This document shows positions 7,621 through 64,000 of a DNA stretch of 64,000 nt, one piece after another. This DNA comes from Giardia intestinalis. Its lineage: Eukaryota. The translations under genes and the position numbers were made by a program. The stretch lies in NCBI GenBank assembly GCA_000002435.2, contig CM018793.1, one strand, 5' to 3'. The notes under the pieces were generated by a model. The model did no database searches. It saw only the letters and a list, made by a program, of their open reading frames with translations, and was not told the origin of the DNA. The stretch's first letter is position 1. Each line of letters begins with the position of its first letter.

Positions 7621-8673
7621 CTACTTTATGAAATTGTAATTCTTAAAGTCTTTACCTACTTTAATAAGAAAGGTTGTAGAATCCTCAGAGCAGCTTACCA
7701 AATCCTCACCATTGGGATTAAATGCAAGGTCGTGGACAGGCCCGACATGTGCCTGGATGCTGCCTAACTTCACGTCCTGGGCTATGTCAATAAAGAACAG
7801 CTTAAACGTGTTCTCAATATGTGTTGTTTGAGTGACTATTTTGCTGTCCATCCCTCCGGCGTAGACCATGAGATTGGGAATGTTTGGGTGGATGGCGCAA
7901 CAGTGCACCGGGTACTCTGTGCTGACCTTCTTAAGAACCGTTAGTGTCTTGGCCCCCAGTATGACTATCTTCTTATCACTGCAGCAGATAGTAAACATGG
8001 AGTTGTTATACAGTTGTATGCTCATTATCTGACCGTTCCCGACGACTATTGGGTCCTTCATCTTTGAGTACGGCTCTAGGGTCTCTGCATCAAAGAGCTG
8101 CACTACACCAGACGCGAACCCCACGACCAGGTAGTCGTCCAGGGGGGACAAAGCTATGCAAGTGACGTCTTCGGACATGCACTTTATCTTGGTGCACTTC
8201 ACATCCTTTGGGTCGCTGGCATCAAGGACAAGGATACCAGCCTTGGACTTCATGATCAACCGTCCTCCAACAAACAGGCGCCTTCCATCTCTGCTATACT
8301 GGATGGCGCTGTAGGCTGTGATTTCCGGGAATTTATAGGTCCTGATGTATGCGCGGTCACTGGTGACCTTGTAGAGAGCAATGAAGTCGAGAACATGGGA
8401 CACTGCAACGTACTCACCGTCAGAGCTCACTGTGAAGTCAGACACAGCTATACCTTGGTCAGATGCTATTGTTCCAGGGTCTCCTTCCGAGCCGATCGGT
8501 CCAAAAGTCTGGACAAACTGCCCGTTTGTACTGGTCCACATGTGTGTATAGCCGTCTGTGGACCCGGTGATGATATAATCTCCGTCGGGAGTGTATCGTA
8601 GCTTTGTAATAGGGCGTGTATGCCCATGGAGACTGAAGACATGGGCTGTGTAGACGTTGGCGACCTTTCCCAT
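7621..8673 (-). CDS. EIF3I: Translation initiation factor eIF3 subunit I (WD40, TRIP-1 family).
   Basis: WD-repeat protein. The C-terminal segment VYAGGMDSKIVTQTTHIENTFKLFFIDIAQDVKLGSIQAHVGPVHDLAFNPNGEDLVSCSEDSTTFLI parallels eIF3i ([25 protein letters not shown]...[30 protein letters not shown]). The listed start at 8688 is TTG, so I trimmed to ATG 8673, which has AATAAATTAAAAACT upstream. Confidence 0.8.
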   Translation of the reverse strand: MGKVANVYTAHVFSLHGHTRPITKLRYTPDGDYIITGSTDGYTHMWTSTNGQFVQTFGPIGSEGDPGTIASDQGIAVSDFTVSSDGEYVAVSHVLDFIALYKVTSDRAYIRTYKFPEITAYSAIQYSRDGRRLFVGGRLIMKSKAGILVLDASDPKDVKCTKIKCMSEDVTCIALSPLDDYLVVGFASGVVQLFDAETLEPYSKMKDPIVVGNGQIMSIQLYNNSMFTICCSDKKIVILGAKTLTVLKKVSTEYPVHCCAIHPNIPNLMVYAGGMDSKIVTQTTHIENTFKLFFIDIAQDVKLGSIQAHVGPVHDLAFNPNGEDLVSCSEDSTTFLIKVGKDFKNYNFIK

Positions 8674-8758
8674 CCAGACGGAGGCCAACCAAAGTTTTTA
8701 ATTTATTCAGATTCGGTAATCCTAGCTAGCTGTTCTGACTAATGGCCTTGCCTCTAAA

Positions 8759-10018
8759 CTACGCTCGGCCAGCATTGCCAGATGTGGCAGCTCTTGCACT
8801 GCGCTGCTCTGGGGTCCACCTGGGCTTTTTTGAAGGGTCCCGCGGAGCCTTCATCTCTACAGGCCTTACGGATCTGGCTGGGCCAGTGGAATTGAACGTA
8901 CTCCGTGCTGCTCGCTCATCTTCGCGAGAACGCTGTGCCCTTTCAGTCTGGTCGCGATACTTGTTTTGCATTGTTCGCAGAATTGCAGGACCGTCCCGTT
9001 GTTGCCGATCTATGAATTGATTCTGGCCCATGCGTGATTGTCTGAATTTCTCGCTACGAATGCTCTTCTCCTTGCGCTTCTGAGCCTTCTTCTCACTCAC
9101 GCACTTCATAATCTTGAAGGTTACCTCCGTGTCGGGAATGGTGTCTTCCGTAAGCCATATTCGATTGTCTAAAGGCCAGCAGGATTTGTCCAGCTCAACT
9201 ATGCAAAAGCTACGCCGTTCAGATGTGCCCTCCGCCTTAAAAATACGCAAATTGGTAAGAATGAACTTGTACTTCTTCTCCAAGTAATCCAGCAACAGCT
9301 CTATGTCCATCTTCTTGTCTGTCAGGCCGCTTATAAAGATGCTTTGGGGTTGCTTGAGCTCGGCGTGCTCCAGCTTCCCTGGGTACATGAAGATATGACG
9401 GCCATCGATCTTGATACGCCCAGAAAAATGTGTGATGATGAGATCTATTAGGGTATCATTTGTGAATCGTACCAGTGCTAATTTGGTCGCTCCCTGTGCC
9501 TTGCTCCCGCCGCCACTGATAGCTATGAGCTTCTTATCGAGGCAAGTAGCCACCTTAGACGGGTCGTCTACTTCAATGCCTCTGTAGTAGACGACCTCGA
9601 TAGAAGGGAAGCGGATTGGATCCACCTGCACCAGGGGTGTGGTCGACTCTATGGCATCTATGGCTGCGTAGTCATGCCGCGTACTAGGGTGCACAATGGT
9701 TATCGTCTGCCCAGTGAGGTTCTTGATTAGGACCAAGAACGTCTGCTCGAGGGTTTTGCGGGTTGTAGAGACTGCCACATTGGTCAGAACAAGGGTTCTG
9801 GACTGCTGTTCGTTGAGCTCAAGTTTTGACAACTTCTGCATGCGGCCCACCTTCGTGGTAGAGAGAGTCGGATCGGTTTTCACATCCTCTTTGATCGGCT
9901 GGTTATACACCGCTGGATCTGTGAATGCCTTAAACGCTGCTGCAATATCAATATCCACTTCGTCTTCGGCTGCCTGTGCAACGTCTTTAGAGAAATCAGC
10001 AGGGTATGCATCAACCAT
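8759..10018 (-). CDS. Hypothetical protein (419 aa) with two RRM-like alpha/beta modules and a strongly basic C-terminal tail; possibly a nucleolar or RNA-binding protein.
   Basis: ATG at 10018. The C-terminal 110 aa are K/R/Q-rich (KKAQKRKEKSIRSEKFRQSRMGQNQFIDRQQRDG...). It is divergent from the next gene across only 30 bp. Confidence 0.5.
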   Translation of the reverse strand: MVDAYPADFSKDVAQAAEDEVDIDIAAAFKAFTDPAVYNQPIKEDVKTDPTLSTTKVGRMQKLSKLELNEQQSRTLVLTNVAVSTTRKTLEQTFLVLIKNLTGQTITIVHPSTRHDYAAIDAIESTTPLVQVDPIRFPSIEVVYYRGIEVDDPSKVATCLDKKLIAISGGGSKAQGATKLALVRFTNDTLIDLIITHFSGRIKIDGRHIFMYPGKLEHAELKQPQSIFISGLTDKKMDIELLLDYLEKKYKFILTNLRIFKAEGTSERRSFCIVELDKSCWPLDNRIWLTEDTIPDTEVTFKIMKCVSEKKAQKRKEKSIRSEKFRQSRMGQNQFIDRQQRDGPAILRTMQNKYRDQTERAQRSREDERAARSTFNSTGPARSVRPVEMKAPRDPSKKPRWTPEQRSARAATSGNAGRA

Positions 10019-10048
10019 TTTAGTTGCAATTAAATTGAAAATTTAAGC
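10019..10048. promoter_or_regulatory. A 30-bp A/T-rich bidirectional promoter spacer between the divergent genes 8759..10018(-) and 10049..11548(+).
   Basis: The sequence tagttgcaattaaattgaaaatttaagc lies between two ATG codons. Giardia promoters are short A/T-rich initiators. Confidence 0.4.
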
Positions 10049-11548
10049 ATGCCCCCCAAACCTGCCAAAAGTGATCCCTCGCAACCAGACGTTCTATGGT
10101 CAAAGGGGTACAATTTGGAGAAATTTGAAGAGAACAAGGATAAGTTTCCTCCTACACTCAAGATTGACAAGGGGGCATCAAAGTGTTTCTTTGAGGTCTA
10201 TAGTCAGTGCCTCGCAGCATTACAAATGGCACCGCTTCCCTGTCTTCAACTTGCTCTCAAAACAATAAAGCCTTGTGAACATATTCACATTCACTCTCAT
10301 GATATTGACAGCGCGTCTGCAACCGTTATCGGGTATGCATTAACAGAAGCAGCAGATGTTAGGGCGCTCACATTGACAGATGTACTTTTGGATTCTGAAG
10401 CAATCTTCGGATTTGCTAAATCCAATCCAAATATAATGAGTTTATCATTTGAACGCATGTGTATCAGCTCTGCCCTTTTAGATATGCTCTTCGAATCCTT
10501 GGGCTCTACACCGTTTGTCAGAAAACTCTCATTCCGTCAATGCAAGTTCCTAGACTTCGATAAGCTGTGCAAATATATATCCAGTCCACAAGCGTACGCT
10601 ATAACTCATCTGACAATAGCAAACTGCAGCCTAGGGACAACTGAACTGACTGCCCTAACAAATTCGCTTGCTGTTAGCGAGTCAACGTTCACACTAGATG
10701 CATATGATGCGCTCGAATGCCTCATGCATAAAAACTGTGGAGTTAAGTTCTTAAACCTTGAGGATAATGAATTAGACTCAGATCAGGTAATTCTGTTGTT
10801 AGAGTCCCTATTCAAGAAGCGCCAACTAAAGTCCCCAGAAATCCAGCTAGCATTTGTGAAAAAAGAGCTATGCTACGCATTACTCAATGCTATCCTTCTG
10901 CAGGACTGTCCACTCGACTTACCAGGCACTATCAGAAAAGTAGGTCGAATTCTTCCTTCATTCGAATCCGCCACAGAGACCTTAGCCACCAAGATAGCTG
11001 ACATAGTATCTGCCGGAAAGTCTCTCTGTTATCCACCAGCCAACACGGCTGGTGGATCTGCTGCTAAGGCGAAGCTGAAAGACGATGCCCCGCAACCACT
11101 CATGATGGCCAACACTGTTAGGGAATTTGTACAAAGTATACACCGAAGCAAGTCACTCATAGACATTACTGATGACGAGCTGCATGTAATAGCCGTTGCC
11201 TTGCCTCCATCAAATCTGCAATCAGTATCCTTTGAATACAGTCAGGTAGGAGAGTATGTGACACCGAACAATTCTATACTCGGGATAAATCTTAAGGGAA
11301 ATGAGATCGACCTAGACGATGTAGCAACTGTGAAGAGACTAGAAGGACTATTGCAGCATACATCGCTTTGCTATTTGGGAACGGATGCCAAGTTGTCATA
11401 TGCAGATGAGCAGACAGGAGGAGAAGAGCAAGTCAAGAAGGAAGACGTGCTCGCACTTATATTTGAGGAGAATCGGCGGCGGATGAGCTCTCTAGAGCAG
11501 CCATACCTTTATGAACCTTGCTCTGGTGTCCCGGCGAAAAAGAAGTAA
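10049..11548 (+). CDS. Leucine-rich-repeat protein, 499 aa (RNI-like LRRs).
   Basis: ATG at 10049. Repeated L..L.L..N.L motifs occur (KFLNLEDNELDSDQVILLLESL, THLTIANCSLGTTELTALTNSL, LGINLKGNEIDLDDVATV). Confidence 0.55.
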   Translation: MPPKPAKSDPSQPDVLWSKGYNLEKFEENKDKFPPTLKIDKGASKCFFEVYSQCLAALQMAPLPCLQLALKTIKPCEHIHIHSHDIDSASATVIGYALTEAADVRALTLTDVLLDSEAIFGFAKSNPNIMSLSFERMCISSALLDMLFESLGSTPFVRKLSFRQCKFLDFDKLCKYISSPQAYAITHLTIANCSLGTTELTALTNSLAVSESTFTLDAYDALECLMHKNCGVKFLNLEDNELDSDQVILLLESLFKKRQLKSPEIQLAFVKKELCYALLNAILLQDCPLDLPGTIRKVGRILPSFESATETLATKIADIVSAGKSLCYPPANTAGGSAAKAKLKDDAPQPLMMANTVREFVQSIHRSKSLIDITDDELHVIAVALPPSNLQSVSFEYSQVGEYVTPNNSILGINLKGNEIDLDDVATVKRLEGLLQHTSLCYLGTDAKLSYADEQTGGEEQVKKEDVLALIFEENRRRMSSLEQPYLYEPCSGVPAKKK

Positions 11549-50758: not shown

Positions 50759-52933
50759 TCATGCCTTCCCTCTGCATATGAACCACCAGCAGAGGAAGCC
50801 CACAAGGCCAGCCACGACAACCACCACAGCGACGGAGATACCTGCTATGGCGCCTGTGCTGAGGCCGCTTCTGCTGCCCCCGCTGGGCTTGGTGGACACG
50901 CACGCCTCACCCTCCAGCCTGTAGTCGTCCCCGCACTGGCCGCACTTGTTCTCCTCGCTGCACCTGATACACCCGTCGATACTGCAGGCGATGCACTGGG
51001 AGCCGTCTGTGTTCGGCCTCTTGCCCCCCTCTGTGCAGGCGGAGCACTTGTTGTCCATATCACAGTGTGAGCATCCAACAACGGCACATGCGAAGCACCC
51101 GCTCCCAGCCAGGTTGGGCTTGTTGTTGGCGCTACACGCTGTGCACGTGGCGGGGGCCATGCCAGGAGCCTCTAGCGCTGCTGGGGCCGTGCATGCTGTG
51201 CAGCCATATACCCCCACATATGCCTTAGCGGTGCTGCCAGCCCCTATCACTGTGCCAAGGGGGTTCTCGCAGGCCAGGACAGACTGATCAGTATTGGATG
51301 CCCCCGGGACCAGAAAGTACCGGCCGTTCTCGCTGGGGGCGGTGCACCTCCCTCCCTCGGCAGTCTTGCACATGTGGCTGCCAGGAGCCTTCTGAGTACT
51401 GTAGCAGCCGCCCATGTACAGGAAGAACCCGGCAGCACACCGGGTGCAGACGCCGTTCTCGCAGGTGTTGTCACCCTTAGTTCCTGTGCAGACGCCATCG
51501 ATGGGGAACGTGGCGGGGTCTCCGCACAGCGAGCAGTACTGGGAGAACGCCCCGGCGCTGTCAACGACGGTCGCCCCGCAGGTCCCAGACGTCCCCCCGC
51601 AGGCCGTGGGGTCCTCGCAGGCCTTTGTGCACTTCACCGGATTGGTTCCCTCCTTGCGATAGTTGAGCTTACAGGAGTTGCAGGTCAACGAGCCAGCGAA
51701 GGTGCACGTTGCACACCCATCGACTCCATCTGTCGGGTTATCACAGGGGACGCATGTGCCGGGGGAAGTGCCCCCTCTCAAGAAGAACCCGGTCTTGCAG
51801 GTTTGGCATTTGGTCTTGTCAGCTTTCTCAGAGCAGGTTGCGCAGTTCTCGCCACAGGCGTCACATGTGAAGCCGCTGTTGGTGTTCTTGATGTACCCCT
51901 CCAGGCACTCTGTGCAGGTCGGCGGTGTGGCGCCAGTCCTCGAGCACTTCTTACAGCCGACGATGCCCTGGTTCTTCTTCTCTTGCTCTGTCACTGTGTC
52001 GCTGCATAGAATACACGCTGTTGCGTCGTCTTTCATGAATAGCCCACTATCGGTGGCTTTGCAGCCGTCGTCTGTCTTTTCCACGCACGTCGTCGTCCCG
52101 TCGGCAGCAGTTCTTACCAGCTTCCCGTTACAATCGGTGCACCTCGGCTTTCCCGTGGCGTCACTATATTCGCATGCCGCGCACCCAGCTATGTCAGTAG
52201 CGCAGGCCTTGCACTCGTCTGCTTTTGGGTCTGCATAGCTATCACTACCACATCCACCAGCCTCTACACACTCAGTGCCCTTCAGGAACTTCCCCCCAAG
52301 GCAGGCGGTGCACTGGGTCGGCGTAGCAGACTCACACGTCAAACAGCCGGGTCCGCATTGCACACATGCACCATCCTTCGTAGCGTACCCTCCTTGGCAT
52401 GCAGTGCACGTGGCAGCCCCTGTACCGCCACCTGGCGCCGTGCATGTGTAGCAGCCCGCCACCCCCGTGACTCCGTCTCGCGGAGTGACGTCTGAGCAAA
52501 GCACGCACTCGTTGCCAGGGGCTACTGGGCTGGCCGGGTTCTGGAATAGATACGCGGCGCCTGCCTTGCAGGTGGTGCACACCCCCTTGTCGGCCGCCGT
52601 GCAGATCTCAGACCACTGGCTCGTCTTGTAGCACCCGCCCATGAAGAGGAAGTACCCGTCCCCGCACTTCCCGTAGGCAGTATCCGAGCCCGCCAACGCG
52701 GTCCCGTCTGCCCTGGTGCACCCGGCCGCCGCGGCCTGGGGGGAGCCGGGGGGCCAGCAGAAGCCGCCGACCGGGACGCCCCCGGCCCTGCACCCGGTGC
52801 AGATCTCGGAGTACCCGACCGTCTCGCACTTATCGGTCTGGCAATTCGCGGCATGGTCTCCGTCTGGCTGACAAGGCGCCGCGAGTGTGACTGCAAGCGT
52901 GGTTCCTACACACAGCAGTGGGTGCCGCCTCAG
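50759..52933 (-). CDS. Variant-specific surface protein (VSP). The 645-aa Cys-rich ectodomain, TM and CRGKA tail are intact, but the expected initiator ATG is CTG.
   Basis: The C-terminus ...GAIAGISVAVVVVVAGLVGFLCWWFICRGKA* is followed by TGACTTAGGTAGTAAAC. There are dozens of CXXC motifs and GGCY motifs. The frame stays open upstream through a signal-peptide-like (L)RRHPLLCVGTTLAVTLAAPCQ... to a TAA at about 53051 with no in-frame ATG. The codon where Met is expected is CTG (plus-strand cag at 52931-52933), and the upstream sequence is GC-rich rather than A-rich. Confidence 0.7.
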   Translation of the reverse strand: MRRHPLLCVGTTLAVTLAAPCQPDGDHAANCQTDKCETVGYSEICTGCRAGGVPVGGFCWPPGSPQAAAAGCTRADGTALAGSDTAYGKCGDGYFLFMGGCYKTSQWSEICTAADKGVCTTCKAGAAYLFQNPASPVAPGNECVLCSDVTPRDGVTGVAGCYTCTAPGGGTGAATCTACQGGYATKDGACVQCGPGCLTCESATPTQCTACLGGKFLKGTECVEAGGCGSDSYADPKADECKACATDIAGCAACEYSDATGKPRCTDCNGKLVRTAADGTTTCVEKTDDGCKATDSGLFMKDDATACILCSDTVTEQEKKNQGIVGCKKCSRTGATPPTCTECLEGYIKNTNSGFTCDACGENCATCSEKADKTKCQTCKTGFFLRGGTSPGTCVPCDNPTDGVDGCATCTFAGSLTCNSCKLNYRKEGTNPVKCTKACEDPTACGGTSGTCGATVVDSAGAFSQYCSLCGDPATFPIDGVCTGTKGDNTCENGVCTRCAAGFFLYMGGCYSTQKAPGSHMCKTAEGGRCTAPSENGRYFLVPGASNTDQSVLACENPLGTVIGAGSTAKAYVGVYGCTACTAPAALEAPGMAPATCTACSANNKPNLAGSGCFACAVVGCSHCDMDNKCSACTEGGKRPNTDGSQCIACSIDGCIRCSEENKCGQCGDDYRLEGEACVSTKPSGGSRSGLSTGAIAGISVAVVVVVAGLVGFLCWWFICRGKA

Positions 52934-53396: not shown

Positions 53397-56300
53397 ATGC
53401 TGATTCTCCTGTGTGCTGCTGCATGTCTCGCCGAGGCGTGCGGGACAGGACCTGCATGTGTTAACGGAGACTGCGCCTACGGGGACGGAGCACACTTCTG
53501 CCAGTGCAGGCGGGGCTGGGCGGGGGCTGCGTGCGACGCCCCCCGTGCAGGGTTCCGCAGGGTAACTACTAATACTGGCAAGGCATCCACAGACAGGGCC
53601 GTCAACTACGCTTGCCTCGTGAACGGGACGGAGTGCACAGAGTCGAACAAGTGCACCTACTACGCGGGGGCGTACTCGTGCGACCCCTGTCCTGCTGGCT
53701 TCGTGTCTTACGAGGACGAGTGCCTGCCGAGGGGCTGCTTCAACACAGGTGACCTCTCAGGACAGGAGGCAACGAAGGCCCCCTGCAACGGCCGCGGCCG
53801 CTGCCTCCTGAAGGACCCCGGGCTGGCCGGGCTGAGTGCTGACGACTACGCGTGCGACTGCTACCCGATCTACCGCGGGGGCCTCTGCCAGTCGTGCGAC
53901 GACGCCAACGCGATCGCTGTGGAAAGCTCTTCGTCTGACGCCCTCCCTACGTGCAATGCGCGGGCCTGCCAGGACTCGGATGGCATCGTGTGCTCAGGCC
54001 AGGGAACGTGCACCCTCGACGTGGGCCTCGATCGCGAATCGTACCGCTACCGCTGCAAGTGCAATGATGGCTACACACGCGTTGGGCACAGGTGCGTCAA
54101 GACGGAGTGCGTGGCCACGATCGACGGGTCCCCGGTCGTCTGCGGGGGCTTTGGAAAATGTATAGAAGAGGGCGACGGTGCCCCCAAGTGTGCCTGCGAC
54201 CCAGATGCAGTCCAGGTCGATAAGTTCTGTACCTCTCCTACATGCACGACCGAAACCCCTGCGAAAATATGTGGCGGAGTGGGCGCCTGTGTGCGTGACG
54301 GCGCTGGTTATAGCTGCGATTGCCGAGGGCTTGCCACAGGAAACTTATGTGAAAACTGTGTTCCAGAGAAGTCTGAGAGTATAGACGGCACCTGTGTTCC
54401 AGTGGGGTGTCTTACTTCCAACAAACAGAGCTCATGTACGAATAAAGGAGTCTGCGTCAAGTCCGACGGCGAGTACCACTGCCGCTGCCCGGACATGCTC
54501 ATTGCCGTTGACGGAGAGTGCACGTCCCCCGCGTGCATGGACGAGGAACTTGGGAAGGTCTGCTCGGGGCACGGCACGTGCAAGACGGACGACCCACGAG
54601 ACATAAAGTGTACTTGCGAAGCTGATTATACCTACGTCGCCCCGGGGCGTTGCATCTTGAGCACTTTGGTAGATAGCCCTGCCACGGTTTGCAGCGATCA
54701 TGGACGCATTGTCGTTAGTGCTGAGGCTCCTGATACGATGACGTGCCAGTGTTCGCCTATCTACACAGGAGCTAAGTGCGCAGAATGTGATCAACAGAAC
54801 GCGCAAGTGATTGGCGAGAAATGTATTGCAAAGAAGTGCATTGTGCAGCAACAGCCACCGGATCCACAGCCCAGTCTGCGCACGGCTACTGCTCAGGATA
54901 TCTGCGGGAACACAGGCACGTACACCACTTATGGTGATCCGAGCAATCCGTTCATCACATGCGTCCCTAAAGATGCTGATAGTGGAAATGTCTCCGCCTA
55001 CAACGGCACCTTCTCTGCTAAACCTGGATGTGTATTTATCAGTAAGATAGACAAGACAAGAAGATTCTTTTGTGGATTCCTTGAGAATATAACAGAAAAC
55101 CTGTCAACTGGTAACTTGCCTACGTGCGCTAAACCTTCCGAAAAACCCGATCTGCCTGAAACATGTACTCACTGTCCAACTGACTTTCACCTTGTACACT
55201 TTGGGGAAAACAATAGCACATGTATGCACAAGAGTTGTCACGATGGCAAATCCAGTCATATGTGGTACAATTACTGCGGCGGCGTGGGAGACTGTATTCA
55301 GAAGAAGGATAAAAGCGGATACGAGTGTGATTGTGGGACTGCTGCTAAATGGGATCCAAATTTGAAGGCGTGTGTTACTGATGCATGCAAGCTCAACAAG
55401 AGTCTTGCTGGCCCCTATGCACCAGACTACTGTATTCCTCAGTCTACCTTTACACTCGAATGCACTGTCGGACGGGACGCAACGTGGCAGTGTAATTGCA
55501 CTGGGGACTATGTTACGTACAACAAGACGTGCATTTCAAAGAGTAAGAACGCTGATCCAAAGACTCAGCGAGCAAGGGGACTCTGTGGCGGCCCCGGGGC
55601 GGGATATATAGACAGTACTGGAACCTGCGTCTGCAGCAATGGCTTCCTCAAGATCGGTGACATGTGCTACAGCTACGACTGCCTGCCAGTTGGCATATCA
55701 GATAACATAAGGAATCCGGATATCAACGTGCTTGTCTGCTCCGGAAAGGGGGTCTGCGCATACAACCAGCTGACTGGCCGGTACGGCTGCGAGTGCAGCG
55801 ACGGACTGGAGGCCTTCGGGGGCTACTGCACTCATCCAGGATGCGCCGGAAAGGTAATGCATAACGGAGAAATTAAGTATGTTGAGTGCAAAATCTACGA
55901 TGGGACAACTGGAGATTGTACAAACGATAAGGGCACATATTCCTGCAAGTGTACTACTCCGTATAGATCTGTCAATGGGATCTGTGTTCATCAGCGTTGC
56001 GTATCGTATGATAACGTCTATTGCGGAGGAGATGTCCTGGCTGCATGCGTGCAGGGGAGTAATTACTATTACGGGTGTGTCTGCTCCGAAGGCTATGAGA
56101 GGGGCCAGCTCAATTCGGAATGCATTCCAAGTAAGTGTGTTTACAGAAGGCTGCTGAGTGATCCCACTATTGCATGCAATGGGTTAGGAACATGTGGCGG
56201 AGAAGGATCTTTGTTGAAGAATAGGCGGTGTGAGTGCAAGTCTGGTGCTAAGCTAGTCACACTTAGAGATGTGAATGGGGAGTTGAGAGAAACATGTATA

Positions 56301-58454
56301 TTAAGTGAGTGCATTTCTAGTGAGGACGGAGTGGAACCGCCGATTATCTGTGGAGGACTAGGCAGTTGTGGGCCCACAGGATGCGTATGCGATCTGGGGA
56401 CAAAGTTATTTAAAAGGGCTTGCTTTGGCATCAACTGCTTTATTAACACCGTAGATGATAGCGGACAACTTGTTGAGTCTGTGTGCGGTGGCGAGACCGT
56501 TGGGGTGTGCACAAAGATAGCGTCGCACGGCGATCGTCGAGACTACGCTTGTAAGTGCAAGGACCCGAAGCCTGACGAGTATGAAGAACTTGATGGGTTC
56601 TGTCTACCAAAAGCTTGCATATTTGAAATCACAACCTTGACTAATCAGCAGGTGAGGACGATGTGCGGTGGAAAGCAGTTTGGAACATGCGTTCTTAATG
56701 CTACTCAATCATCCAAGTCATACTGTAAGTGCATAAATCGATATGACATTATTCAAATAACAAATGGAAAGTGTATGAAGAAAACCTGTCTTAGCGACTC
56801 TCTTTCTGGAGGTCCGGAGGGATACGTTGAATGTTCTGGACATGGGAAGTGTATAGGGGATCATATTGTGGGGTACTCGTGCAATTGTGACGAAAATTAT
56901 CAAACGGTTGCAGACGATCGCCGTTATTTGTGCGTACCAGCTGTCTGTGTTGTATCAGAGACAAATTCCAGTACTATATGCAACGGAAGAGGGACCTGTC
57001 AGTTCAAGACAGACCCAGGAAAGTGCGAGTGTAGGCCTGGGTATGATGGTACCAAATGTGAGACGTGTGCAAATGGCTACAAGGAACACACAGATGCACA
57101 GTGCTACCTCAATGGCTGTCCGGCAGACAATTGTGGCACGGAGGAAAATACTAGCGTAGGGGCTTGCCAATTTAGCGGAAACAGTTTTGCTTGCGTCTGC
57201 GTCAACTCGAGCTTCGTCGTTGACAGTGCTAGCAAGAAGTGCCGAAAATCCAGATGCGTTTGGTCGGATCCATACGATCAGACAGAAAAAACGTGCTATG
57301 GCATGGGTACGTGCAATGATAACGGCGAGGACACTGGGGCGTGTGTTTGCAACCCCGGGACAACCCTAGTCGGGACAAACATCTGTGTTTATAGCCAGTG
57401 CATCTCGGATGGAAGCGACCCCAAAGCAATATGCAAGGGGCGCGGGACATGCGTAGAGGGCCCTGTCGCCGGGACAGGACTGTGCAGATGCAACAGCAGC
57501 AGATACCGCACAGACAAGAAGACCGGCCAGTGCTTTGTCAAGGAGTGCTTCGGGGCACACGAGAGCATCCTGGCCGAGGTCTGCGATGGCGGTGGAACAT
57601 GCAGTGAAGACACTAAAAAGTGCAACTGTAGCGTAGACGGCTTCCAGAGCCTCGACGGCCAGAACGGCTGCGTGCACAGCAGCTGCGTCTCGTCGAACAA
57701 CAAGCTTTGTAGCGGCTTTGGGGCCTGCGAGAAGACCGGCGACACCTACGGCTGCCTGTGCGCAAGTTACTATACTCTGGTCGATAAGGACTGCATCCCC
57801 ACAAGGTGTCTCAAGGACGGGAAAGTCTGCAACGGCGGCGGCACGTGCTCCGGCGAGGGATCCTCTGCGACCTGTAGCTGCAACCAGGGCTGGGCTTCGC
57901 TGAATAACCTCTGCTACCCGGCAGCCTGCGTTTCCAGTGGGACGCTCTGCGGGGGGAATGGCAACTGTCCACTTTCCACAGATAGTACATGCGAGTGCAA
58001 GTATGGGTATGAAAGTGTTCTTGACCAGCTCTGCATCAGCAGCCAGTGCGTCCAGCGCGGCACCGACGGCACCGTGACGATCTGCGGGGGCAACGGCAAG
58101 TGCGTGTCTGAGAACGGCGTGACTCCCAGCTGCGTGTGCAACGAGGGCTTCTCTCTCACAAGCGACTTCGTCTGCGGAGTCCCTGCTCCATCCAACAAGT
58201 CATCAAGTACCATAACGATTGCAGTCGTGGTCGTCGTCCTCCTCGTCCTCGTTGCAGTGGCCGGCTTCCTCGTCTGGTGGTTCGTGATACGGCCCAGGAA
58301 GAGCGGTGAGTTGAGGGAGCGCGCCCCGCGGAAAGGCCCTAGCTTTAGTGGCTCGCAAAAGCTCAAGAAGCAAGCAAGCTCCAAGGCGTCGCTCCACGCC
58401 ACTGCGCCCCTACTGAGCCGGTCATCTCATGCCGGTTCTAGTGTCCAACTCTAG
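53397..58454 (+). CDS. High-cysteine membrane protein (HCMP; EGF-like, Cys-rich type I membrane protein), 1685 aa.
   Basis: It has a signal peptide (MLILLCAAACLAEA), about 190 Cys in repeated C.C....G..C patterns, and a single TM (ITIAVVVVVLLVLVAVAGFLVWWFVI) with a 60-aa cytoplasmic tail, not CRGKA. The gene is GC-rich. Confidence 0.85.
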   Translation: MLILLCAAACLAEACGTGPACVNGDCAYGDGAHFCQCRRGWAGAACDAPRAGFRRVTTNTGKASTDRAVNYACLVNGTECTESNKCTYYAGAYSCDPCPAGFVSYEDECLPRGCFNTGDLSGQEATKAPCNGRGRCLLKDPGLAGLSADDYACDCYPIYRGGLCQSCDDANAIAVESSSSDALPTCNARACQDSDGIVCSGQGTCTLDVGLDRESYRYRCKCNDGYTRVGHRCVKTECVATIDGSPVVCGGFGKCIEEGDGAPKCACDPDAVQVDKFCTSPTCTTETPAKICGGVGACVRDGAGYSCDCRGLATGNLCENCVPEKSESIDGTCVPVGCLTSNKQSSCTNKGVCVKSDGEYHCRCPDMLIAVDGECTSPACMDEELGKVCSGHGTCKTDDPRDIKCTCEADYTYVAPGRCILSTLVDSPATVCSDHGRIVVSAEAPDTMTCQCSPIYTGAKCAECDQQNAQVIGEKCIAKKCIVQQQPPDPQPSLRTATAQDICGNTGTYTTYGDPSNPFITCVPKDADSGNVSAYNGTFSAKPGCVFISKIDKTRRFFCGFLENITENLSTGNLPTCAKPSEKPDLPETCTHCPTDFHLVHFGENNSTCMHKSCHDGKSSHMWYNYCGGVGDCIQKKDKSGYECDCGTAAKWDPNLKACVTDACKLNKSLAGPYAPDYCIPQSTFTLECTVGRDATWQCNCTGDYVTYNKTCISKSKNADPKTQRARGLCGGPGAGYIDSTGTCVCSNGFLKIGDMCYSYDCLPVGISDNIRNPDINVLVCSGKGVCAYNQLTGRYGCECSDGLEAFGGYCTHPGCAGKVMHNGEIKYVECKIYDGTTGDCTNDKGTYSCKCTTPYRSVNGICVHQRCVSYDNVYCGGDVLAACVQGSNYYYGCVCSEGYERGQLNSECIPSKCVYRRLLSDPTIACNGLGTCGGEGSLLKNRRCECKSGAKLVTLRDVNGELRETCILSECISSEDGVEPPIICGGLGSCGPTGCVCDLGTKLFKRACFGINCFINTVDDSGQLVESVCGGETVGVCTKIASHGDRRDYACKCKDPKPDEYEELDGFCLPKACIFEITTLTNQQVRTMCGGKQFGTCVLNATQSSKSYCKCINRYDIIQITNGKCMKKTCLSDSLSGGPEGYVECSGHGKCIGDHIVGYSCNCDENYQTVADDRRYLCVPAVCVVSETNSSTICNGRGTCQFKTDPGKCECRPGYDGTKCETCANGYKEHTDAQCYLNGCPADNCGTEENTSVGACQFSGNSFACVCVNSSFVVDSASKKCRKSRCVWSDPYDQTEKTCYGMGTCNDNGEDTGACVCNPGTTLVGTNICVYSQCISDGSDPKAICKGRGTCVEGPVAGTGLCRCNSSRYRTDKKTGQCFVKECFGAHESILAEVCDGGGTCSEDTKKCNCSVDGFQSLDGQNGCVHSSCVSSNNKLCSGFGACEKTGDTYGCLCASYYTLVDKDCIPTRCLKDGKVCNGGGTCSGEGSSATCSCNQGWASLNNLCYPAACVSSGTLCGGNGNCPLSTDSTCECKYGYESVLDQLCISSQCVQRGTDGTVTICGGNGKCVSENGVTPSCVCNEGFSLTSDFVCGVPAPSNKSSSTITIAVVVVVLLVLVAVAGFLVWWFVIRPRKSGELRERAPRKGPSFSGSQKLKKQASSKASLHATAPLLSRSSHAGSSVQL

Positions 58455-58632
58455 TTCGCCGCCATCCATGCAAGATATTACAGCATGCACGAGTTGGCCC
58501 TCCAAAACTGTAAATCTGGGTATAAGACTCACTCAGCTCGAGTAGAGGAATCATCTACTGAGAGTAATTGTCCCTCGCCTGAAGCGTGTCCAGACGTCTC
58601 ACGGGCAGCAAGCCTGGCCCTCTGAGGGTGGG

Positions 58633-59091
58633 GTGGTTGTAGGTAACAAGAGGGGCTCCCCTCCACTAGTGCAGAAGGACAACCATGGATCCAGTGCGGT
58701 CGTCGGTGCCTGGGCTTGTGTCTCGTGCAACGCGGGCTGGAGATCAGACCAGCACGGCGACCAGAACCAGAAGCCCGACATCTGGCTCGTCGACAAGTGC
58801 AAGGCGATAGAGGTGGGTGTCATCCAGCCCCGCCAGATGGATGCCTACTACAACGAGAAGGTCAAGAAGTACAAGGACGGGACGCTCCCGATCATCTATG
58901 GGACGGATGGATCCCTCCACCCCAAGTCCAAGAAGCACCTCGAGGAGCTCCACGTGGACCTCTGTCCGGGCTGCCTTCGCCATCGCCCACATGGCTGCAA
59001 AGGCGAACGAGCACCTGACGAAGCTGATCAAACGGGCCGGGCCGAAAGCCTGGTCACCCAGAGCGACCGTCTCCTGTCATCCTACTTCTGA
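58633..59091 (+). repeat. Copy A of a dispersed repeat of unknown family lying 3' of an HCMP gene. It shares a conserved protein-coding-like core with copy B.
   Basis: Copy A encodes ...YKDGTLPIIYGTDGSLHPKSKKHLEEL... and copy B encodes ...YGERTLPIILGIDGIIYEKTKRHLEE.... The shared nucleotide blocks are ctcccgatcat and cacctcgagga. Confidence 0.35.
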
Positions 59092-59696
59092 CAACTGAAC
59101 GAATCCATCCCTGGGACCCGACGACAACGACCGAGAGGGGGCGCAAGACTGGACACACAACCGAGTTGAATCCCAACCAGAAGAGAAAGCCCTGATAGCT
59201 GCTGCCGATCTGTATGGACAGTATTGAGGATGACAACAAAGACCAGAGCTTCACCTACTATGAAGAGAGACCAAGGAGAGGCACCCTAGTAGACCAGCGA
59301 GCCTGCAAGACGGCCTGATCTCCAAAAGGACCTATGTGCACACCTAGATCGAGCACACACCCGCAGAACAGCCGAGGAACGCAATAGCTCCTCCCTACCA
59401 CCACTGTGGTCTTTATATTGATACACGACCAACCCTCGTCTCTGGACATCGCCAAAAATTGAGCGGGAATTTACTCGCGAGATTTGCGGACAGCGCCCGC
59501 AGGCGAGGGCCCCAGCAGCACACCACTGGAAGCAACCGGTGGGTGGAGTAAATGACTAGTTGCTTTTTACGCGTTGCTTCTGGATGTGCGGGTCTCCAGT
59601 GTGTGCAGCACGCACTCTGCAACTGGCTAGTGTGTCCGGCCACAGGCGGTCATTTTTACCCTACACGGGGAAACATCAGCAATTAAAAATCTACTA

Positions 59697-62094
59697 ATGC
59701 TGGTATTATTGTTCTTCAACATGTTTTCTAACAATCTGATACCTCAGACAGACGACAGGTCTACTCTAGACAGGAGTACCTACTATGTTGCCTGTGAGGA
59801 GGACCAATCTGATTGTGTGGAAAATAAGTGCGTTATATTCGCTCACGAGAGGCCTCTATGTACCGAATGCAAGTCTGGAAAAATCCCTATCGACGGAGAG
59901 TGTGTCGACGCCAACAGTGTGCCAGGGACAACTGTGTGTGAACAAGAAAATGTTAACGGCGGTGGAACACGCTGTAAGTCATGTTCTAGTGGAAATGGAA
60001 GTAGGAATACTAGTGACGGTGTAGGTTATTTTCTATTTTACGGGGGCTGCTACAATAATGATGAGTGGCCTGGCACAGACATCTGCAAGACCGTTTCAAA
60101 CGGGGTGTGCACAGTTTGTGATACTGAGTATGGGGCCGTTTTTACAAATTTAGATACTACCACCGATGAAAGGTGTATCCTATGTAGTGATACACTATCC
60201 GGAATGGAAGGCTGTGCGACTTGTGTGTCCCTTCCTCAGAATCCTGCGCCAGATAATGCAAAGGGCGCCGCCAATCTCCAATGTACTTCCTGCTTAGATG
60301 AGACCAAAGCCCCAATCGATGGAGTATGCGCAACCTTTGGCTCTAACAGGTGCAGAAATGGATACTGTACTCATTGTGTAGTTGGTTATATTTATCATAG
60401 GGGCGGGTGCTATAGTAATAACAAGGAGGGAACTAAAATATGTGCTGAGGTCAACCAAATAGAGATAGGTGGCTATTCTGCTTGTAAGCAGTGTACCAAC
60501 ACTAGTGAGGCCCCACACAATGGAAACTGTAGGCAGGTAAGTATTTTACATAGCTGCAGAAAAGATAGTTCAACCGGAATGTGCGAAGCTTGCAACCAGC
60601 ATTTCTATGGCCGCCCTATCTTCCTGTACAAAGGCGGCTGCTACGTCATCACTGACCCCCTTGGAGACACCATATGCAAAAAGACGTTCAACGGTAAATG
60701 TACTATTTGTAATGGGGACCAAGGATACTTCATGAAGGATTCGACATGTACTAGATGCGATGAGTTTGTCCCTGGTTGCGCTGTGTGCACCCCTAGCCCT
60801 GATGCCTCCAGTGCTCCTGTGTGTGCCAGCTGCAGGGCCGGTAAATATGCAACCGTAGACGGTGCTTCCTGCGTCGACTCATGTCCATCGGGTAGCTCAG
60901 GTAGCTGCGATAAAAGTAATGTCTGTAGCTGTAAGTGCAGTACAGGAACCTACTTGGATGCCGCCACAAATACATGTAGCGCATGCAATTCAGCTTGCGC
61001 AGACTGTATAGGCCCTGAACCCGATAAGTGTACATCGTGTGCTTCAGGAAAATATCTCAAGCGCGATGCATCTGGTGCCATTGAATGTATAGATTCTGTT
61101 GACTGTGGTGAGGGGTATTATGCAGATAGTGCTACCAACACTTGTTCTTCGTGTGGTATTGACAAGTGCCAGACGTGTGCTTCTGATAGTGGTGTGGTCA
61201 AGTGTATGAAGTGCCTTTCTGGGTATCTTTCCATCGATAGCCTTTCATGTCAGTCCCAGTGTGATGGACCAAATCAGCAAGGACATGCCAATGGCAAATC
61301 CGTTTGCGAATGCATTGCAGGGGCTTATCTGGAGGGCTGTGTCCAGTGCGACTCAGCACGCCTGGAGTGGGTCCAGGGTCTGATCACTGCACAAGTGCTC
61401 CTCGGGAAAGTACACCAAGATGAATGGTTCTGACACGGCCACATGTGTCGACGCGTCTGGCTGTGGCGATGGATACTATGCGGATCCAGAAGAGCTCCAG
61501 TGTGCCACATGTGGAATTGAGAGCTGTCAAGCATGCACTCCTAAGGACAACGACCTCGTGTGCACACGGTGCTCCCCCGGACTTGTCTCCGTCGATGGTT
61601 TCTCGTGCCCACTCACATGCACGGAGCTGAGTCAGAGAGAGGAGGATGGAAGGTGCGTCTGTGCAGAGGGCTTCGAGCCCAGCAGTGACGGCGCATGCAT
61701 CGTTAAGAACACCTGTCCATCAGACGCCACAGGGTGCTCGAGCTGCAGCGCAAGTGGCGAGTGCCTCTCATGTGCGGACAGCAATCACAACGTCCAGCCG
61801 AGCAAGAGATCCTGCGCTTCAGGCTGTCCAAGCGGATCAGAATCAGTCGGCTCTCTCTGCATATGCATGGAGGGGTACACCCTCAGGGGTGACACATGCG
61901 TCTCTCAGACCAGGAAGGCCAGTTCCAGCTCCACGACGATCATCGTGGCAGTCGTTGTCTCTCTTCTCATCATAGCGGCTGTCGCCCTCACATGTTGGTT
62001 CGTCCTGCGGAGGCGGAGAGAATCGAGGGCAGCTTTGAAGAAAAGGGTGATAGCTGAGAATATGAAGCTCATGGGGACGGTGGACGAGTTCTAG
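59697..62094 (+). pseudogene. High-cysteine membrane protein gene disrupted by a frameshift near 61360-61400. It may be a pseudogene or an assembly error.
   Basis: ORF 59697-61433 (frame 0: GYFLFYGGCY, many CXXC) terminates after out-of-pattern residues (...CVQCDSARLEWVQGLITAQVLLGKVHQDEWF*). ORF 61420-62094 (frame 1) continues the Cys pattern and carries the TM (TIIVAVVVSLLIIAAVALTCWFVL) plus a charged tail. An intermediate frame reads GSDHCTSA, which is consistent with at least one 1-nt indel. Confidence 0.65.
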
Positions 62095-62403
62095 CTCTGT
62101 GGCCGTGCAGACTGTAGCTCATAACGAGTGAATGCTCAGTGATCCATTCTGAGCCCGCACCCTTCAGGCTGGCGCTTGGCTCCTCGTTAGTTTCCATCCT
62201 GGGCTGTGACTCAACCAGACTCTGCTCTGAGGCATGACCTACTTGGTTCACCGAGGCGAGTCACGTCACTGGACACCCTCGCCCTCTTACCCAATTGGCT
62301 CCAACGATTAGATGCCGCAATTCAGCAGAAGGGGAAACGCGATAGAGAAGCCGGAATTTAGTCTTTGCAGCTGCAGCCAAACACACTGCACAGAGTGAGC
62401 GTC

Positions 62404-62700
62404 GACATGATCTCGTACTGGATGACGGAGCATCTGCAAGAGCGCCCTGCGATCCATGAGCAGAGGGCCGGGCCTCTTCCCCGACACAACACATGGGAGC
62501 TGTCCGCCGGCATCCACGAACGCGTACTCTAACTCCAAGATAGAGGTGTACGGGGAGCGCACCCTCCCGATCATACTCGGGATCGACGGTATAATCTATG
62601 AGAAGACGAAGAGGCACCTCGAGGAACGGGGTAGACACCCGAGGTCGTGGCGTATCCTATCTTCGTCACGGAACACCAGGGCCACGAAGCAATCCTGAAG
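62404..62700 (+). repeat. Copy B of the same dispersed repeat, lying 3' of the second HCMP.
   Basis: See copy A. Similarity is concentrated over 62556-62620 versus 58868-58950. Confidence 0.35.
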
Positions 62701-64000
62701 TACATGGCCAGAGTCAATTGCTCTGAGACCAGACTGCTGTGACCGACGGCAGGCCCGAGACAACGGGTGTTCACTAGATATCAGACGATGGTTGACTCCG
62801 ACGGACCAAAGGAAGAGAAGTTCTAGAAGACACTGCGAGGAGCGGCAGCGAGTTTCTAAGGAAACAGAATATGAACTTTTCTTCTCCCACCAAGATCTGA
62901 GGACATCCAAATTCCAGATTCTGGATCCTGGGTTTCAAGTCTTGAATTCTGGACTTTGTTAAAAGTGAGTGGGAGGCCTGCTTGCCCAGAGCGGCGGTGA
63001 CTCACACTGGGGGTTTACTCGGACAATCAGTAAGCTAACTCCGGTGTTTCCCTTCTGGTAAGCTCCTAACATCCGACAGAACAGGACCACAGGCTCCTGT
63101 GTCGCCGCAGTACGTGTCTGTTTCCTTCACCAGGTGATCTTACTCTCGCAAATGACTCTGCCACCGGCTCTGTCGTCTTGAAAGAGTCTATACTGCAGAA
63201 CTTCCCGTGAACTGTTTCTATGCAGATTAGAAATCTTACGTGCTTACCAACGTAGGGATCCAATAACATGGCGCCATGCTCACAGTCCCAGGGTCACCAG
63301 ACAATGGAGCACGGGGCTGAGAAACTCAGATTGCAGCAGTCCAGCTCTTGAGAATCCCTGCATATATTAGGACAGAGTGACTGGGCTAGCACACAGTGAC
63401 ATATTGAACCAGCCAGAGAGGCAAACAATCTCCTCTCATGTAAGACCCCTGTATATCTAGGGCGCCCGGACCATCCGAACTCATAGGCATGCATCCAGTT
63501 CAATATCGGCAATCTAAGCACTGATGGACCGGTTGTGAAGCAGAGCCAGTGCCGACCCCAAGAGCTCAACTGCTCTGGGATAGAGCGTCGTATATGAGCT
63601 TGGTTACCATGAAATGTGTAGTCAGAGCCTGCCACTAGCTATAACTATTGTTTTACCTCAGCTGGTTGTGGAGTCTTCACGAAGCTCGATGCACACCCGA
63701 TCTGCTAAACTAATGAAAAGTAATTACTATGCCCTTGTTGAGATGTGATACGTTGAAATGCTTGTGTACTATAGATAATACCATATCAAGAGCTATGACA
63801 CCATCCATTGATCTACAAGAGGACGATTACATGACTGGCACAAATCTCAACTTCGCCAAATTGCTTAACCTAAAACACAAAACGCGGTGAGAAGAGAAAT
63901 ACTTTGCAGAATAATGGCGTTTAATGTTTCTATTAATTAGACACGTCATATGAATAGTTAAAAGTCAGCCTAAATTGCCACGTTCTTAAGGATTTATCTT

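Follow-up and report, generated by a model that had tools for sequence, protein, structure and literature searches.

The Genie/Gil group of Giardia comprises early-branching non-LTR retrotransposons in which a single ORF encodes a reverse transcriptase (RT), a CCHC knuckle, and a PD-(D/E)XK endonuclease domain (RLE). The family named GilD by Arkhipova and Morrison in 2001 and Genie 2 by Burke and colleagues in 2002 is reportedly one and the same, a 'dead' non-LTR family of Giardia lamblia. GilD is disrupted by deletions, adjoins VSPs, and lies in gene-poor regions (PMC2861651); GilM is 5,474 bp long and occurs in subtelomeric tandem arrays (PMC7000408). Annotation of the WB reference genome places pseudo-RT remnants between VSP pairs (Xu et al. 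2020, PMC7000408 Table 2), and RT, VSP, and HCMP genes cluster in islands where synteny breaks (PMC3091692). Outside Giardia, the RLE of R2 is defined by the motif set RH / PD / D-E / K..KY / RG.W (PMC4838377).

We examined two segments, copy A and copy B, of a 64-kb stretch of the Giardia intestinalis genome, referred to here as the window. With a probability of roughly 0.88, we consider both to be dead remnants of Genie/Gil-group non-LTR retrotransposons, derived from two related lineages.

Two related segments downstream of HCMP genes

The peptide YKDGTLPIIYGTDGSLHPKSKKHLEEL is encoded at nt 58870-58950, inside a 152-aa ORF (58633-59091, copy A), and YGERTLPIILGIDGIIYEKTKRHLEE at nt 62549-62626, inside an 80-aa ORF (62456-62698, copy B). 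When the copy A region was compared with the whole 64-kb window using tblastx, the sole strong non-self match paired 58816-58947 with 62495-62626, with 21 of 44 amino acids identical (47.7%, E=1.1e-9). By this alignment, the similarity of the two peptides exceeds chance, and a fortuitous resemblance was rejected. At the DNA level, the copies shared only two short collinear blocks, one of 20/23 identities that includes cacctcgagga and one of 21/27 that includes ctcccgatcat; the best 90-nt stretch had an ungapped identity of 52/90. The first-pass annotation had reported similar peptides and these two nucleotide blocks, and both observations were reproduced; it had set short chance matches as the alternative, and the 44-aa peptide alignment extends beyond these. 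Neither segment has a further copy in the 64-kb window, and no piece of a reverse transcriptase was found there.

Both copies lie on the same strand as their respective upstream HCMP gene. The HCMP1 stop ends at 58454, with the start of ORF A 179 bp later and the start of element homology ~243 bp later. For HCMP2, ~300 bp separate the end of the stop (62094) from the secure start of copy B. These distances agree with the position 0.2-0.4 kb 3' of the HCMP stops that had been claimed. Of the extents first assigned to the segments, the peptide coordinates held, but the ends had to be redrawn to ~58697-59553 for copy A and ~62395-62777 for copy B. Copy A is longer than first described because a conserved 3' untranslated region (3' UTR) of ~460 bp follows its stop. 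Rfam gave no match on 58400-64000.

Features of copies A and B in the window
Feature	Position	Strand	Description
Copy A, coding remnant	58697-59091	+	Last ~130 codons of the retrotransposon ORF; RLE domain from just after the RH motif to the stop
Copy A, KPD motif	58771-58779	+	
Copy A, second acidic residue	58810-58812	+	E; D in other copies
Copy A, K..KY	58858-58872	+	
Copy A, beta4 and GTDG motif	58882-58911	+	
Copy A, natural stop	59089-59091	+	
Copy A, 3' UTR of element	59092-59553	+	~460 bp; blastn, five-way 3'-end alignment
Copy B, possible upstream extension	62254-62394	+	Into the CCHC zinc-knuckle region; weak support
Copy B, coding remnant	62395-62777	+	Older remnant of the RLE domain, second lineage; spread over three reading frames
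Copy B, RRHD	62400-62411	+	
Copy B, K..VY	62537-62551	+	
Copy B, TLPIILGIDG	62561-62590	+	
Copy B, stop	62775-62777	+	

Identity of the encoded domain

Homologues of copy A comprised 23 Giardia proteins, mostly named 'Reverse transcriptase/endonuclease' (E down to 5.6e-57). In longer copies in GCA_000498715.1, an RVT_1 ORF (E=1e-19) was located directly upstream of the A-like part. Locus L002 has an RVT_1 match at 8296-9933 and the A-like segment directly after it, at 10001-10777, and L004 is collinear with L002 over 3.1 kb. The RT upstream of the endonuclease domain is present in these longer copies of the family and absent from the copies in the window.

A profile of the Giardia domain was searched against 1.84 billion proteins, and the long matches aligned at their C-termini, beyond the RT. 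In P0075, which carries an N-terminal C2H2 and RVT_1 at 371-627, the match covered residues 835-945; in P0067, a 2036-aa RT protein with RVT_1 at 1483-1680, it covered residues 1861-2025. P0075 is a true R2 protein, matching R2Bm (8gh6_A) over its full length (E=4.7e-170). Using hhalign, the CCHC, RHD, KPD, DV, and K.KY motifs were aligned to residues 849-946 of P0075 (prob 92%, E=5.5e-7), a remote relationship in which 32% of 95 aligned columns are identical. The alignment to P0067 reached a prob of 97% (E=3.3e-11) and includes ETLPVVLSTTGALYGRSAEHLDQL against GTLPIIYGTDGSLHPKSRRHLEEL.

When the motifs were examined separately, the family read TRHD, KPD, IDVGV, and EKVKKY, copy A read KPD, IEVGV, and EKVKKY with RH lost, and copy B read RRHD, a degraded PD, a deleted DVG, and SKIEVY. 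A CCHC lies between the RT and the endonuclease, with the family consensus CPGCHTARALDHDMNC (P0004, P0003) aligned to the R2 CCHC of P0075; it is absent from the truncated copy A, and in copy B there is a doubtful trace of it. The family resembles R2, CRE, NeSL, R4, HERO, and Genie both in the order RT, CCHC, PD-(D/E)XK RLE and in the motifs RH, PD, D/E, and K..KY. It differs from R2 at the RG.W position, where the Giardia copies have YGTDG or LGIDG, and in location, R2 being specific for a 28S rDNA site and the Giardia copies lying at varied sites in VSP/HCMP islands.

The I.YGTDGS stretch aligned after the K..KY helix of the RLE domain, at beta-strand 4 and the RG.W-equivalent motif (motif names as in PMC4838377). 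Judged from the alignments, the likeness of the A and B peptides is that of the conserved RLE core, which comprises the K..KY helix with beta-strand 4 and the motif that follows. An RNase H origin of this stretch, which the first-pass annotation had raised and rightly doubted, was rejected: Pfam gave no match even at E<=10, and in RT-containing proteins the stretch corresponds to RLE sequence that follows K..KY. Pfam likewise gave no match on the A and B ORFs or on the family's best C-terminal sequences, and phmmer of P0004 against the PDB sequences gave none. An AlphaFold2 model of P0004 from a 6-sequence alignment had a mean pLDDT of 33 and was unusable, so fold identity rests on the profile alignments.

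Both segments, earlier attributed to an unknown family, are therefore assigned to the RLE domain of Giardia non-LTR retrotransposons. The earlier suggestion that they could be decayed fragments of a mobile element is borne out by the RT/endonuclease homologues, the upstream RVT_1 ORF, and the profile matches to R2 and P0067.

Copies A and B and their relatives

Lesions in copy A were read from a DNA alignment to the intact reference L009 together with L001, L002, and L004. Small deletions of 1, 8, 1, and 8 nt lie within 58703-58760. Farther on, 11 bp are lost between 58959 and 58960, and the loss of 1 nt between 59034 and 59035 restores the frame. Frameshift-aware alignment of copy A with P0004 gave 111/153 identical residues; sequence upstream of ~58697 was not significantly similar to the family (score 41 vs 34.9+-4.5 for shuffles). 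The first-pass annotation had looked to copies elsewhere in Giardia, and A-like copies 87-91% identical to A were found in other Giardia assemblies: blastn identity was 91% to L001 over 58749-59524 and 87% to L002 over 58749-59485. Homology to the other copies stops at AGTAAAT (59547-59553), which fits the Giardia polyadenylation-signal consensus AGTRAAY. The divergence point of each copy is visible in the five-way alignment of 3' ends, and the ends are not uniform, which is atypical for fresh non-LTR insertions and points to later rearrangement.

From its described properties, and not from alignment to a type sequence, the copy A family is probably GilD/Genie 2. It was seen solely in degenerate form, with frameshifts and with deletions inside the element, the frame being interrupted in every genomic copy aligned (L001, L002, L004-L007, and copy A). 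Its longest copies, of ~3.1 kb, have an RT ORF followed by the endonuclease part, and its longest RT ORFs measure 545-595 aa. Both long copies, L002 and L004, carry at their other end the final ~160-200 bp of the 3' UTR in inverted orientation, and 59353-59553 of copy A matches the inverted segment at L002 8246-8049 (blastn). This arrangement recalls the inverted repeat reported for Genie 2. Copy A differs in being only the 3'-terminal ~0.86 kb, and an inverted repeat looked for within or around it in the window was not found. The family also adjoins VSP genes, as given for GilD (PMC2861651).

Copy B is much older and more eroded than copy A. Its PD is degraded to 'GPGLFPD', its xDVG motif is deleted, its tail reads VAYPIFVTEHQGHEAILKYMARVN, and it carries at least three frameshifts and an in-frame stop. 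Proteins of a second lineage gave collinear tblastn matches in two frames, 62438-62632 and 62638-62754. In frameshift-aware alignments, copy B scored 175 with P0044 (45.5+-7 for shuffles), 224 with P0031 (52/122 identical), and 201 with P0070 (52/107 identical). Residues 31-83 of P0047 scored 57 against the possible upstream extension (34.7+-5.6 for shuffles, maximum 47 in 15 shuffles). Copies A and B scored best with different lineages, and by these scores copy B is nearer to the second lineage of the RLE domain. A counterpart of copy B, 82% identical, is present in ENA contig L003. The lineage-2 fragments (P0031, P0044, P0070, P0043, and P0047) were found only in human-gut and other metagenome assemblies, and a JGI metagenome scan gave no confirmed lineage-2 relative.

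Like the present copies, GilM and GilT (Genie 1; telomeric and possibly active) are RT/endonuclease LINEs from the same organism, and the lineage behind copy B may be related to them. Unlike the GilM arrays, A and B are internal, solitary fragments. The homologues of A and B included no Giardia ORF that was both long and intact, so neither relic could be linked to GilM or GilT; with the L002 RT ORF as query, a word-indexed protein search aimed at GilM/GilT retrieved same-family fragments only. The pseudo-RT remnants of strain WB are similar as RT/endonuclease remnants among cysteine-rich surface-protein genes. They lie, however, between head-to-head VSP pairs, whereas A and B follow HCMP genes on the same strand and hold the endonuclease end only, without the RT part.

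An association with HCMP/VSP genes, for which the first-pass annotation had suggested testing, was evident in the neighbourhood of the copies: all eight examined lie within 3.3 kb of a VSP gene, an HCMP gene, or a VSP tail fragment. Four of the eight are 0.2-0.6 kb downstream of a cysteine-rich surface-protein gene on the same strand, among them the A-family relics of L005 and L007, 0.46-0.6 kb downstream of a same-strand VSP. At a fifth locus, L002, the inverted 3'-UTR segment that lies at the upstream end of the element joins, by its 3' end, the final 100 bp of a VSP. Further copies face a VSP tail-to-tail or are joined to an RT ORF.

Origin and meaning of the relics

Elements of this kind would insert by target-primed reverse transcription, in which a chromosomal nick made by the RLE is followed by RT copying of the element RNA, starting at the 3' end; 3'-terminal pieces could remain when copying stops short or when sequence is deleted afterwards. 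Copy A would be one such piece, comprising the RLE C-terminus and the 3' UTR. Copy B comes from the same RLE domain in the second lineage and is far older and more eroded. The position of the relics beside HCMP genes would reflect a build-up of the Genie/Gil group in the variable VSP/HCMP islands of Giardia chromosomes. We infer both this mode of insertion and the present lack of function of A and B.

The first-pass annotation had also considered a conserved 3' module duplicated together with the HCMP genes. Both copies do follow an HCMP stop at 0.2-0.3 kb on the same strand, and the L005 and L007 relics hold a comparable place behind a VSP; however, the HCMP stop-to-element spacers and the HCMP 3' ends of the two loci show no nucleotide similarity, and the HCMP1 and HCMP2 C-termini are only 27% identical over 164 aa. 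Copy A is far closer to copies at unrelated loci than to copy B (87-91% identical to the former, only ~48% at the protein level to the latter), their best-scoring lineages differ, and the tail-to-tail and RT-joined arrangements also argue against such a module, which we regard as extremely improbable. Equally improbable is a domesticated or still-expressed small endonuclease gene in copy A. The frame is open from 58633 to 59091 and reaches its natural stop, and the KPD, E, and K..KY residues are kept, yet that stop is reached because the 11-bp and 1-bp deletions together restore the frame, leaving ~25 codons between them out of frame. The first candidate start is a GTG, and the N-terminal 21 codons lack significant family similarity. 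The CCHC and RH needed for R2 endonuclease activity (PMC4838377) are missing, and the ORF lacks conservation, the frameshifts being different in other copies. Although the open 152-aa frame keeps the PD, E, and K residues, copy A, like copy B, is probably unable to encode a working protein.

It is also very unlikely that the relics are kept for an action in cis or through RNA on surface-protein genes, as recombination substrates or sources of antisense or small RNA. All eight copies examined are near cysteine-rich protein genes, retrotransposon relics have been proposed to accompany VSP duplications (bioRxiv 10.1101/2022.03.07.483299), and small RNAs from Giardia retroposons are reported in work cited by PMC2875222 and PMC10999387. 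Against this, insertion tolerance in gene-poor variable islands could equally account for the association, and A and B decay through frameshifts, deletions, and stops like neutral DNA, with no constraint seen in their sequence. Dead Genie/Gil-group remnants remain our preferred explanation.

A broader proposal, which we find unlikely, is that copy B and its relatives form a fourth, undescribed Giardia RLE lineage and that the group preferred to insert a few hundred bases 3' of surface-protein genes. If such a preference were real, the elements would themselves have driven turnover of the VSP/HCMP families. Relics of retrotransposons next to VSP/HCMP genes have already been published, and the present finding is real but ordinary. 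Its significance lies mainly in annotation: ORF 58633-59091 and the ORFs at ~62365-62698 should be masked as retrotransposon remnants, not listed as genes. Relatives are mislabelled in public assemblies, for example as 'Dihydrolipoamide acyltransferase' and 'Diadenosine tetraphosphatase'. The 11-bp deletion of copy A is common to L001 and L004, from which it follows that already-defective copies of its family propagated, a small point for the history of a 'dead' family. The relics also mark this stretch as one of the known variable VSP/HCMP/RT islands of Giardia.

Two segments of shared coding descent

Both relics lie in non-coding Giardia DNA, one 3' of each (+)-strand cysteine-rich gene: copy A behind HCMP1 and copy B behind HCMP2. 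The peptides that the first-pass annotation had read from the two segments were present where it had placed them. Comparison of the A region with the whole window using tblastx confirmed their likeness, with a sole strong non-self match between 58816-58947 and 62495-62626 (47.7% identity, 44 aa, E=1.1e-9). At the DNA level, the match was limited to two short collinear blocks (20/23 and 21/27), inside which the annotation's two quoted nucleotide words fall. The similarity is genuine and is found chiefly in the protein, suggesting that A and B are copies of one coding sequence that have diverged, rather than products of a recent duplication.

The two ORFs of HCMP2 overlap and differ in frame, and the expected CxxC...GKY pattern near 61340-61420 is regained only by a frame shift; HCMP2 is therefore either a pseudogene or a gene with an indel or sequencing error. 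Over the first 1.6 kb of HCMP2 the G+C content is 0.45-0.50, below that of its 3' part and of the HCMP1 ends. The drop to about 0.41 at 63500-64000, compared with 0.55-0.6 around the relics, may mark the edge of a GC-rich VSP/HCMP/RT island (VSP, a surface-protein family; RT, reverse transcriptase).

Features of the locus and of the sequences compared with it
Feature	Sequence	Position	Strand	Remarks
VSP with CRGKA tail	window	50759-52696	(-)	
HCMP1	window	53397-58454	(+)	1685-aa cysteine-rich membrane protein, EGF-like repeats
HCMP2	window	59697-61433 + 61420-62094	(+)	second cysteine-rich gene, as two ORFs; first ORF matches Pfam VSP
Copy B	window	RRHD 62400-62411 to stop 62775-62777	(+)	three frames
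Conserved block	window	62902-63119	(+)	~130 bp 3' of B
Conserved block	L002	11299-11517	(+)	~140 bp past A-family element end (11160)
Conserved block	L004	7241-7431	(-)	~500 bp upstream of element start (7933), opposite strand
Profile match	protein P0075	835-945		RVT_1 371-627, N-terminal C2H2 finger
Profile match	protein P0067	1861-2025		RVT_1 1483-1680

Identity of the encoded domain

The 152-aa ORF of A had 23 homologues in a collection of 5.8 billion proteins, all 23 from Giardia and mostly named 'Reverse transcriptase/endonuclease'; they are short fragments whose frameshifts vary. The least damaged, P0004 and P0003, gave a consensus in which a CCHC knuckle (CPGCHTARALDHDMNC) is followed by TRHD, KPD, IDVGV, EKVKKY, and LPIIYGTDGSLHPKS. 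The public Giardia gene models P0008, P0012, P0013, P0022, and P0038, actually frameshifted fragments of the retrotransposon domain, bear unrelated names such as 'Dihydrolipoamide acyltransferase', 'Diadenosine tetraphosphatase', and 'ATP-dependent RNA helicase', which are evidently annotation errors.

Used alone as query, the Giardia domain had no match in Pfam or among PDB sequences. An exhaustive search of 1.84 billion representative proteins with a profile built from six family members gave 64 matches, mostly short Giardia-like fragments; in the clearest long matches, the matched region was the C-terminus, downstream of the RT domain. P0075 is a true R2 protein, similar along its entire length to the Bombyx R2 structure 8gh6_A (E=4.7e-170), and hhalign aligned the Giardia CCHC, RHD, KPD, DV, and K.KY to its residues 849-946 (probability 92%, E=5.5e-7). 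The hhalign alignment with P0067 spanned 158 columns (probability 97%, E=3.3e-11) and set ETLPVVLSTTGALYGRSAEHLDQL against GTLPIIYGTDGSLHPKSRRHLEEL, the peptide singled out in the first-pass annotation. The R2 restriction-like endonuclease (RLE) has four motifs: RH in helix 1, PD...D/E, K..KY in helix 2, and RG.W after β-strand 4 (Govindaraju et al. 2016, PMC4838377). Judged by these alignments and this motif set, the stretch common to A and B is predicted to be helix 2, strand 4, and the RG.W-equivalent position of an R2-type RLE. An RNase H identity of the stretch was ruled out by the alignment to the RLE motifs. The AlphaFold model of the domain (pLDDT 33) was too poor for a direct fold test. 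P0067 is encoded by an intact 2036-aa ORF on a Logan contig (SRR31929897; L010, 1950-8060), its C-terminal domain aligned to the Giardia RLE domain, and may represent a relative of the Giardia elements that is full-length and possibly active.

Anatomy and lineages of the two copies

Two long copies in assembly GCA_000498715.1, L002 8049-11160 and L004 7933-10982, were collinear across 3.1 kb and carried an RVT_1 ORF (E=1e-19) immediately upstream of the A-like part. The DNA homology of A starts at about 58697, and the sequence preceding that point showed no significant similarity to the A family. Positions 58749-59524 were 91% identical to locus L001 and 87% to L002, and the match extended about 460 bp beyond the ORF stop, so A includes the 3' UTR of the element. 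A five-way alignment of 3' ends placed the last common base at about 59553, inside AGTAAAT, which fits the Giardia polyadenylation signal. Read against an intact reference (L009), A carries four small deletions close to the 5' end; between 58959 and 58960 it lacks 11 bp, a loss common to A, L001, and L004, and a 1-nt deletion at 59034/59035 restores the frame, so that the ORF still reaches its natural stop.

The 80-aa ORF of B had one homologue, on a 508-bp metagenome contig with 82% DNA identity to 62375-62802. The exhaustive profile search also yielded several members of another lineage of this domain, lineage 2 (P0031, P0044, P0070, P0042, P0043, and P0047; one contig is from a human-gut metagenome), whose proteins show collinear matches to B in two frames. 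In a frameshift-aware protein-to-DNA alignment written for this analysis, with shuffled sequences as control, B scored 175 with P0044 (shuffles 45.5±7), 224 with P0031 (52/122 identical), and 201 with P0070 (52/107 identical), compared with just 102-112 over 40-45 aa for lineage-1 proteins; A scored 487 with lineage 1 and about 195 with lineage 2. These scores and the collinear matches define the extent of B from RRHD to its stop, with a degraded PD motif, a deleted DVG motif, and an internal stop; an upstream extension into the CCHC region, to about 62254, is weakly supported. By sequence comparison, A and B belong to different lineages, their likeness being that of a conserved domain core.

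Origin and surroundings of the relics

The RT/endonuclease homologues, the RT ORF upstream in longer copies, and the R2-type domain bear out the first-pass proposal that the segments are decayed fragments of a mobile element. Its other proposal, a conserved 3' module accompanying HCMP duplication, is not supported, because the stop-to-relic spacers and HCMP 3' ends had no nucleotide similarity between the two loci, the HCMP C-termini shared 27% identity over 164 aa, and A resembles copies from unrelated loci far more than it does B.

By analogy with R2, we infer from the domain content and the anatomy of A (ORF end plus 3' UTR) that the parent elements would have used target-primed reverse transcription to insert: the RLE would nick the target, and with the nick as starting point the RT would copy the element RNA, beginning at the 3' UTR. 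Truncation or later deletion would then produce 3'-terminal fragments such as A. Since the 11-bp deletion is common to the 3-kb L004 copy and the 0.86-kb A, an already defective sequence was propagated, either in trans or through duplication or conversion of the DNA.

In seven of the seven A-family loci sampled besides the window, the relic or element lay ≤3.3 kb from a VSP gene or VSP tail fragment; the sample is small and was collected via called ORFs, so no target preference is claimed. At L005 and L007, the relic was 0.46-0.6 kb downstream of a same-strand VSP, and at L002 an inverted copy of the element's 3' UTR adjoined a VSP end. There (7943-8246, minus strand; GCA_000498715.1 AHGT01000021.1), the terminal ~200 bp of the 3' UTR is fused to the last ~100 bp of a VSP, comprising transmembrane segment, tail, and stop; the junction looks like an insertion into, or recombination with, the VSP 3' end. 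Because L004 has this inverted segment ahead of its RT ORF, the segment may belong to the element itself.

Downstream of B, a non-coding block some 100-200 bp long (core TGCCCAGAGCGGCGGTGRCTCRCA...CACYCCGGTG) is conserved. Among the sequences compared, nhmmer found three strong matches only, plus a marginal one (E=0.009, L002 1102-1155); Rfam gave no match, and in neither L002 nor L004 did a lineage-2 ORF relic adjoin the block. The block could belong to a retroelement UTR, or be a different repeat dispersed in the VSP/HCMP islands.

A is putatively assigned to GilD (Genie 2) from three properties of its family: only dead copies, a unit of ~3 kb, and a position beside VSPs. An inverted repeat of Genie 2 would have its counterpart in the inverted 3'-UTR segment that L002 and L004 carry.

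Pseudo-RT remnants have been listed between VSP pairs in the WB reference (PMC7000408), GC-rich islands at synteny breaks are formed by RT, VSP, and HCMP genes (PMC3091692), and a preprint has argued that duplicated VSP/CRMP pairs are surrounded by retrotransposon relics (10.1101/2022.03.07.483299). The association of retrotransposon relics with surface genes is already known from this literature, and the relics at both sites are of ordinary, already-described kinds.
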